A stretch of DNA of 3,454 bases, from NCBI RefSeq assembly GCF_003334405.1, contig NZ_QOWM01000034.1; one strand, 5' to 3'. A program made the translations under genes and the position numbers. Under the pieces are notes generated by a model, which saw only the letters and a program-made list of their open reading frames with translations, ran no database searches and was not told the DNA's origin. Below are positions 1,258 through 1,402 of the stretch, one piece after another (the first letter of the stretch is position 1; each line of letters starts with the position of its first letter). Origin of the DNA: Escherichia coli (GTDB lineage: Bacteria > Pseudomonadota > Gammaproteobacteria > Enterobacterales > Enterobacteriaceae).

Positions 1258-1402
1258 GTACATCATACTGACATACAACAGTGTATTTCTTCATGATGTA
1301 CGTTGTTGTAATTCATTGTGACATACACTATAGTATTTCCATGTGACATACATATACGTACATCACATGGAAATACACATGGGTAAATCACTGTGACATA
1401 CA
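1258..1402. repeat. Iteron array upstream of parA: candidate partition site (centromere) and operator
   Basis: Core (C/G)TGACATACA at 1268-1277, 1318-1327, 1343-1352 and 1393-1402, with spacings of 50, 25 and 50 bp. Degenerate or inverted GAAATACA copies at 1282-1289 (inverted), 1332-1339 (inverted) and 1370-1377. GTACATCA(T/C) at 1258-1266 and 1358-1366, with its inverse ATGATGTAC at 1294-1302. Confidence 0.7.
1306..1334 (+). promoter_or_regulatory. Candidate sigma70 promoter for parA, overlapped by an iteron
   Basis: -35 TTGTAA (1306-1311), 17-nt spacer containing iteron GTGACATACA (1318-1327), -10 TATAGT (1329-1334). This arrangement would allow autorepression by the centromere-binding protein. 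Confidence 0.4.

Follow-up and report, generated by a model that had tools for sequence, protein, structure and literature searches.

A 25-bp lattice of near-palindromic units upstream of parA is a probable partition centromere and operator of IncX4 plasmids

RESULTS

The repeat array lies in a partition region of the IncX4 plasmid backbone

The analyzed stretch of DNA, referred to here as the window, is 3,454 bp long and was assigned by sequence matches to the backbone of an IncX4-type conjugative plasmid. Its top match, at 98% identity, is the E. coli plasmid NZ_CP122596.1; the match to the reference IncX4 plasmid pSH146_32 is at 96.5%, and about 320 more IncX4 records from E. coli, Salmonella, and Klebsiella also match. 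The genes of this region are arranged in the order topB-hha-hns, agrB/dqlB, the repeat array, parA, the gene for an 89-amino-acid (89-aa) protein, small open reading frames (ORFs), a DUF2726 gene, and bis-pir. Here, agrB/dqlB is a type I toxin-antitoxin locus between hns and the repeat array, and bis-pir, at the downstream end, comprises the R6K-like replication genes. A gap of 74 bp separates parA, which PGAP names "MipZ," from the 89-aa gene. The array is present in 325 plasmid records and the 89-aa protein (at least 90% identity) in 324. One of the records matching the window, NZ_MF381175.1, carries a PAP2-family gene, which we take to be part of an mcr-1 cassette. The features of the partition region are collected in Table 1.

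TABLE 1 Positions of the repeat units, candidate promoter elements, and partition genes, in window coordinates unless a locus is named
Feature	Position	Strand	Composition and remarks
Par-type unit after hns	L003 23364-23383, ending at window 1-2		GTACATCAcacaGACATACG; directly after the hns stop codon
Unit 1	1258-1277	+	GTACATCA tac TGACATACA; direct; 0 mismatches to the 20-bp pattern and the 19-bp skeleton
Unit 2	1282-1301	-	Inverted; minus strand reads GTACATCA tga AGAAATACA; plus-strand skeleton starts at 1283, on the lattice
Candidate -35 hexamer	1306-1311	+	TTGTAA; consensus scan; overlaps the left arm of unit 3
Unit 3	1308-1327	+	GTAATTCA ttg TGACATACA; right arm fills the promoter spacer
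Candidate -10 hexamer	1329-1334	+	TATAGT; consensus scan; TAnAGT across lineages; runs into the left arm of unit 4
Unit 4	1333-1352	+	GTATTTCC atg TGACATACA; palindromic-type left arm; 0 skeleton mismatches
Unit 5	1358-1377	+	GTACATCA cat GGAAATACA; 1 skeleton mismatch
Unit 6	1383-1402	+	GTAAATCA ctg TGACATACA; adjoins the ribosome-binding site AGGGG at 1403-1407
parA	1412-2059	+	215-aa Walker-type ATPase; deviant Walker A motif GGDKGGTGKS at residues 6-15
Unit 7	2056-2075	+	GTAAATCA cag TGACATACA; includes the parA stop codon
Unit 8	2081-2100	+	GTACATCA tta TGAAATACA; 25 bp after unit 7
Lone left-arm box	2127-2134	+	GTACATCA; outside the 25-bp lattice, flanked by the ribosome-binding site and the start codon of the 89-aa gene
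89-aa gene	2134-2403	+	Presumed centromere-binding protein and repressor

Several other features of the window were recorded on either side of the partition genes. The type I toxin-antitoxin locus takes in 294 to 381 on the minus strand and 656 to 751 on the plus strand. The Rfam model of the AgrB antisense RNA scores 62 bits in it, against a gathering score of 40, and dqlB, a DinQ-like toxin gene, is annotated in a near-identical plasmid; the agrB-dqlB system has been validated on IncX3 plasmids (PMC12317039). A 33-nt direct repeat (350 to 382 and 548 to 580, 85% identical) may mark a second agr-like copy. About 100 bp upstream of the array lies a perfect 16-nt inverted repeat, TTTAGTTACAACATTC and GAATGTTGTAACTAAA, at 1023 to 1038 and 1149 to 1164 with 110 nt between the arms, which is unique on the 34-kb plasmid and encloses a GC-rich hairpin (1106 to 1128) resembling a terminator on the minus strand. 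A diverged relative of the cassette (L012, described below) retains the arms of the inverted repeat but has a different interior. Downstream of the par genes, one small ORF (2428 to 2643) encodes a hydrophobic, membrane-protein-like product of 71 aa and another (2856 to 3209) a 117-aa product with a signal-peptide-like N terminus; in most IncX4 plasmids, a DUF2806 gene replaces the segment that holds these two ORFs.

A single dyad unit recurs on an exact 25-bp lattice

Positions 1258 to 1402 contain six copies of a 19-bp near-palindromic unit with the skeleton GTAnnTC-N4-TGAnnTAC. At one mismatch or fewer, the skeleton starts at 1258, 1283, 1308, 1333, 1358, and 1383, an exact 25-bp lattice, and the window's only other copies are those starting at 2056 and 2081. 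The 25-bp register that an earlier note on this DNA had described is thus borne out, and self-identity at a lag of 25 bp reaches 0.61 within 1258 to 1407, against a maximum of 0.39 anywhere outside 1100 to 1420; the observed value was reached by 0 of 10,000 shuffles. Read on both strands, the full pattern is the bipartite GTA(A/C)(A/T)TCA-N3-TGA(C/A)ATACA, of which the window holds seven exact copies and one with two mismatches. A search for the corresponding 20-bp pattern GTAMWTCA-N4-GAMATACA, allowing up to three mismatches, returned 11 matches representing eight distinct units, compared with 0.27 expected from shuffles, and none of 200 shuffles reached 11 matches. The repeat pattern is far beyond chance.

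In a position table built from 24 units of three lineages, information is high at GTA, TC, and TGACATACA and almost absent from the spacers, which are 3 nt within a unit and 5 nt between units. The right arm, TGACATAC, has a strong consensus, and the left arm, GTAnnTCA, is a looser version of its inverse. The arms of a unit lie about 11 bp apart, center to center, with 14 bp to the next unit. In pSH146_32, unit 4 reads GTATGTCC atg TGACATAC, a nearly perfect palindrome.

The earlier note had divided the same letters into two interleaved repeat families. Its individual sightings are accurate for the core (C/G)TGACATACA at 1268, 1318, 1343, and 1393 (spacings of 50, 25, and 50 bp) and for the copies of GTACATCA at 1258 and 1358. 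Its degenerate core, GAAATACA, does occur at 1370 to 1377 but is no separate element, being the right arm of unit 5. Likewise, the inverse motif ATGATGTAC is present, at 1293 to 1301 rather than 1294 to 1302, and belongs to unit 2, which lies in the opposite orientation. We therefore discarded the two independent families, as the left and right arms of one dyad skeleton account for all copies, including the "inverse" and "degenerate" ones. A 12.5-bp lattice of single boxes, suggested by the box end positions, was also set aside, as the dyad reading fits the conservation pattern better, and a reading of the left arm as an IHF site fit the consensus poorly by eye. Rfam matches to mir-3688 at 1313 to 1396 on both strands scored 25 to 26 bits against a gathering score of 84 and do not indicate an RNA gene; they result from the self-complementarity of the near-palindromic array, in which the arms 1306 to 1354 and 1355 to 1403 are 71% complementary.

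The same unit occurs beyond the main array

The array had been taken to end at 1402, a limit that does not hold, as further units lie at 2056 and 2081 and immediately to the left of the window. This last unit, directly after hns, precedes the main array by 1.26 kb; in pSH146_32, two units spaced by 25 bp follow hns (L002, 4921 to 4964). On a complete 34-kb relative, the unit is found at three places only, with six copies upstream of parA, two at the parA stop codon and in the gap, and one after hns, for nine matches compared with 0.21 expected. The post-hns unit may belong to the partition site as its third cluster, or it may provide a regulatory connection with the hns-topB operon.

The skeleton is conserved while the spacers diverge

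Two independent, diverged relatives of the cassette were compared, one on a metagenome contig (L011) and one in assembly GCA_030370555.1 (L012), the latter likewise in a topB-hha-hns context. The identity of their parA genes to that of the window at third codon positions is 0.42 and 0.51, respectively, which is near saturation. Both nevertheless carry six to seven units upstream of parA on the same 25-bp lattice and one or two after parA. At the lattice position orthologous to the inverted unit 2, both have a direct unit, and unit 7 is kept in L002, L011, and L012. Across four aligned lineages, no variation is seen in 62 of 66 skeleton columns, compared with 12 of 48 spacer columns (Fisher P = 5e-15); this test used a MAFFT alignment, and aligners place repeats on repeats. 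The gap-free lattice of 150 bp is itself the main result. At closer range, the window and pSH146_32 show 15 differences, 10 of them in spacers and only 1 in the skeleton. These comparisons indicate strong purifying selection on the skeleton, the lattice, and the promoter hexamers described below.

L010, an assembly of a near-identical IncX4-like sequence that is riddled with indels, was left out. In L012, the ribbon-helix-helix (RHH) gene at 3001 to 3243, the counterpart of the 89-aa gene, is apparently frameshifted after residue ~25 of the true protein; this frameshift and the indels of L010 may be sequencing artifacts.

A candidate parA promoter is embedded in the array

A parA promoter with the form TTGTAA-17-TATAGT had been proposed at 1306 to 1334, with a repeat in its spacer. 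A consensus scan recovered it at that position, and the right arm of unit 3 does occupy the spacer. Units 5 and 6 fill its leader as far as the ribosome-binding site, and unit 4 would cover the -10 hexamer and the transcription start, expected near 1341. Consensus promoter matches as such are as frequent in this region as in shuffled sequence (3 found versus 3.1 expected). The invariant columns of the unit spacers are more informative. In the four lineages, 5 of these 12 columns coincide exactly with the bases that TTGTAA and TAnAGT have outside the skeleton, namely, TT at 1306 and 1307 and T, A, and A at 1329, 1330, and 1332. Within the -10 hexamer, T1, A2, A4, G5, and T6 are invariant and position 3 varies among T, A, and C. 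No other promoter-like match has non-repeat bases that are conserved across lineages. It is this conservation of the hexamer bases, the raw match count being at the level of shuffles, that supports a real parA promoter at 1306 to 1334, and because of it, the autoregulation proposed in the earlier note, through a repeat within the promoter, is plausible. For the 89-aa gene, the consensus scan found no internal promoter in 2060 to 2133. The parA-RHH intergenic region of IncX3 contains TTGTAA-17-TATGAT, identified by eye, to which nothing in the window is comparable.

The gene pair encodes a ParF-like ATPase and a probable RHH protein

Type Ib partition systems have a small ParA (~200 to 230 aa) with a deviant Walker A motif and no helix-turn-helix (HTH) domain, and an upstream repeat array that overlaps the promoter. 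The parA product, at 215 aa, has the deviant motif, and its Pfam CbiA/MipZ/ParA domains begin at residue 2, leaving no N-terminal DNA-binding (HTH) domain; upstream, the -35 and -10 hexamers fall within units 3 and 4 of the six units at 1258 to 1402. In a PDB search, ParF of TP228 was the closest solved structure (E = 2.5e-11), and the NCBIfam ParA_partition model scored 111 bits, below its cutoff of 180. By sequence, ParA is ParF-like, of type Ib.

In type Ib systems, a small dimeric DNA-binding protein, usually of the RHH type and with a flexible N-terminal tail, is encoded directly after parA, and the 89-aa gene occupies this position. The 89-aa protein is probably an RHH protein, a moderately supported assignment to which four lines of evidence contribute; no fold other than RHH was suggested. 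Its match to Pfam RHH_1 is weak (E = 0.0037), as is the match of its family profile to CopG (E = 0.03). An AlphaFold model has a pLDDT of 74 overall, 85 to 90 over residues 41 to 80, and 55 to 67 over the N-terminal 35 residues; the β-strand is not formed in this monomer model. A fold search returned CopG, CdbA, TacA, and Arc at the top, all with nonsignificant E values above 0.5 (at least 0.57). The model suggests a disordered N-terminal tail of ~35 residues and then confidently predicted helices, which would make up a probable RHH domain and an extra C-terminal helix. The family is small, with 16 representatives at 50% clustering among 1.8 billion proteins. ParG was not matched by the 89-aa protein in PDB sequence or profile searches, and no Pfam hit to the ParG family was obtained for it or for any of 20 family members; the ParG structure 1p94 ranked 25th in the fold search, with a probability of 0.15. 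The 89-aa protein is therefore not a detectable ParG homolog by these searches.

Distant parA-RHH pairs keep the architecture and change the boxes

Ten distant parA-RHH pairs were compared, drawn from IncX3, IncX1, Klebsiella, Morganella, and Citrobacter IncFII plasmids and from five further genome or metagenome contigs that belong to other replicons. Their RHH proteins are 30 to 45% identical to that of the window. All 10 have clusters of their own box variant upstream of parA, and nearly all have them in the parA-RHH gap as well, where one pair (L017) has at most one weak box. The boxes are of a TAAAGA type in IncX1, IncX3, and Morganella and of a GTA(n)ATACA type in the others, and spacings of 11, 25, and 36 bp recur. 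In the five plasmid loci that were mapped in detail, the DNA covered holds few or no copies of the box elsewhere. Across these sequences, a constant architecture is combined with boxes that differ between protein lineages, as would be expected if the partner protein reads the boxes. Covariation between the β-strand residues and the box sequence across the family is suggestive, not clean, and was not used as evidence.

DISCUSSION

The array as a proposed centromere and operator

The distribution of the unit supports a specific protein-binding array tied to the parA/89-aa pair, because on the whole plasmid the unit occurs around these genes only and differs from the replication iterons. We consider it likely, with a probability of roughly three in four, that the array serves in cis as both centromere and operator for a type Ib (ParF/ParG-style) partition cassette in the IncX4 backbone. 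From the locus and its relatives, we infer the 89-aa protein as the binder, its stoichiometry, the centromere activity, and the repression. Each unit would bind two dimers of the RHH protein, one per arm, and the arms, being about 11 bp apart, would lie on the same side of the helix, as at Arc-type operators. The six units spaced by 25 bp and the intergenic units 7 and 8 would be coated cooperatively to form the partition complex, from which the flexible N-terminal tails of the 89-aa protein may engage and stimulate nucleoid-bound ParA-ATP; ParA-ATP would then move and position the plasmid copies. Occupancy of the array would also shut the embedded parA promoter, giving negative autoregulation. 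Since binding would cover the -35 hexamer, the spacer, the -10 hexamer, the start, and the leader (units 3 to 6), the array would be an operator as well. For the two intergenic units, three roles are conceivable: an extension of the centromere, a roadblock, or the control of an internal promoter.

The earlier note had envisaged a protein wrapping or polymerizing along one face of the DNA. The geometry does not support the single face, as 25 bp corresponds to 2.38 turns of B-DNA and successive units are rotated by ~137°. With such a fractional number of turns, simple cooperative binding along one face is not to be expected from the spacing itself, and given this rotation, the complex should spiral around the DNA or need it to be twisted or wrapped. 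A broader proposal, which we regard as possible yet doubtful, is that the parA/yafA-type cassettes of IncX plasmids form a distinct type Ib branch whose centromere is distributed over three clusters (one following hns, one ahead of parA, and one in the parA-RHH gap), in which the 25-bp lattice would force a superhelical RHH coat and the intergenic units would tune the ratio of ParA to its partner through a roadblock or an internal promoter.

Alternative explanations

The array might instead be an operator only, serving the autoregulation of parA and the 89-aa gene, with the centromere elsewhere, for example, in the intergenic units, in the post-hns unit(s), or in an unrecognized site. Conserved promoter hexamers embedded in units 3 and 4 and extra units at two other places favor this explanation, and in TP228, the operator OF and the centromere parH are treated as two discrete ParG-binding sites (PMC3130281). 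However, six units over 150 bp, two of them upstream of the -35 hexamer, exceed the needs of one promoter, and a large upstream array is the centromere in characterized type Ib systems (PMC3130281, PMC9499535). Moreover, all of the sites are of one unit type, so the same protein would bind them and all could contribute. We consider an operator without centromere function unlikely.

Binding by something other than the 89-aa protein, such as ParA, the plasmid H-NS/Hha, or a host factor, in silencing or other regulation, is more improbable still. One unit does lie directly after hns, and the 89-aa protein was named as the binder purely by deduction. Against these points, ParA has 215 aa, with its ATPase domain starting at residue 2, and lacks an N-terminal DNA-binding domain, and H-NS-type proteins need no 19-bp dyad units on a strict lattice. 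In addition, where parA-RHH pairs occur on unrelated replicons without hns-topB nearby, both array positions are still occupied; such cases include the IncFII plasmid L008, L013, and L014, the last of which adjoins a Rep3-family replication gene.

A role as replication iterons, or as an incompatibility determinant, for the Pir/π initiator of the R6K-like replicon would suit regularly spaced direct repeats on an iteron-type plasmid, and "iteron" was the earlier note's word for them. Such a role is excluded for practical purposes because the true iterons (TTTAACGGCAAATCCTCTCATG) are unrelated 22-bp repeats at 22-bp spacing beside the rep gene, ~4 kb away; the origin region has no par-type unit, and the array travels with the parA-RHH pair onto non-IncX replicons. 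Chance, low complexity, or a decaying duplication without function can be dismissed with the same assurance: short motifs recur easily in an AT-rich region, but the shuffle controls and the retention of the skeleton and not the spacers, across lineages with near-saturated synonymous sites, contradict it.

Significance

On the favored reading, the array is an ordinary kind of element, newly mapped for a clinically important plasmid family. IncX4 plasmids spread mcr-1 colistin resistance, and the sister IncX3 plasmids spread NDM-5, as in the case of pNDM5_ESY002. In the literature searched, the IncX partition genes appear as "parA (yafB)" with "yafA conserved hypothetical protein," as "MipZ," or as a colored "partitioning" block. 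An IncX centromere, its motif, or results on binding, stabilization, or incompatibility were not found in the searchable literature, an absence that is no proof. The map of cis-acting sites offers a handle for plasmid curing or incompatibility-based displacement, supports partition-based typing of IncX subgroups, and lets the reading by RHH proteins of arrays with nonintegral helical spacing be studied. The general picture of type Ib systems is unchanged, and the mechanism would not surprise a specialist.

Comparison with known systems

The functionally closest systems are TP228 parFGH, the δ/ω-parS system of pSM19035, and the parFG-like loci of pMET1 and pCRY. In TP228, ParG cooperatively coats repeats upstream of parF, and its N-terminal tails load ParF (PMC3130281). 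The IncX4 cassette resembles TP228 in its small ParA without an HTH domain, in the small protein encoded downstream, which probably combines a flexible N-terminal tail with an RHH fold, and in the repeat array of 100 to 150 bp upstream of the ATPase gene. The centromere-binding protein of TP228, ParG, is the autoregulator of the parFG operon (PMC3130281, PMC2262945), whereas for its IncX4 counterpart this is predicted only. The sites also differ, as parH consists of degenerate 4-bp ACTC boxes with AT-rich spacers (PMC3130281) and the IncX4 array of a 19-bp dyad on a 25-bp lattice. Unlike TP228, IncX4 has an 89-aa protein without detectable similarity to ParG and extra units between the two genes.

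In pSM19035, activation of ParA by the RHH protein ParB takes a contiguous run of at least four repeats (PMC9499535). The centromere-binding protein of this δ/ω system is a repressor too, as is predicted for the 89-aa protein, and its arrays, like the IncX4 array, contain repeats in direct and inverted orientation. In pSM19035, arrays stand ahead of the ATPase gene and also of the RHH gene, which is likewise the case in the IncX4 window. The two differ in that the ω sites are contiguous 7-bp heptads without spacers in Gram-positive hosts. An ω-type parS has at least four contiguous WATCACW heptads, and the IncX4 boxes are 11 to 14 bp apart; ATCAC does occur inside some left arms, for example, at 1361 to 1365 and 1386 to 1390. 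No sequence relationship between the δ/ω and IncX4 systems was found.

The parFG-like loci of pMET1 and pCRY have eight imperfect direct repeats over the promoter upstream of parF, which are unrelated to those of TP228 despite homologous ParG proteins (PMC2262945). The IncX4-related pairs are similar in that the boxes change and the architecture stays; IncX4 differs from these loci in the family of the centromere-binding protein, the repeat unit, and the spacing. At Arc and CopG operators, two RHH dimers sit on a pseudo-palindrome with half-site centers about one helical turn apart. Both by sequence and by fold, the 89-aa protein matches CopG best, yet Arc and CopG bind single operators as pure repressors, with no ParA-linked multiunit array and no N-terminal tail that contacts an ATPase. 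Relative to its closest functional counterparts, the IncX4 system is thus different in its unit, in the unrelated family of its partner protein, and in the split of its sites into clusters.
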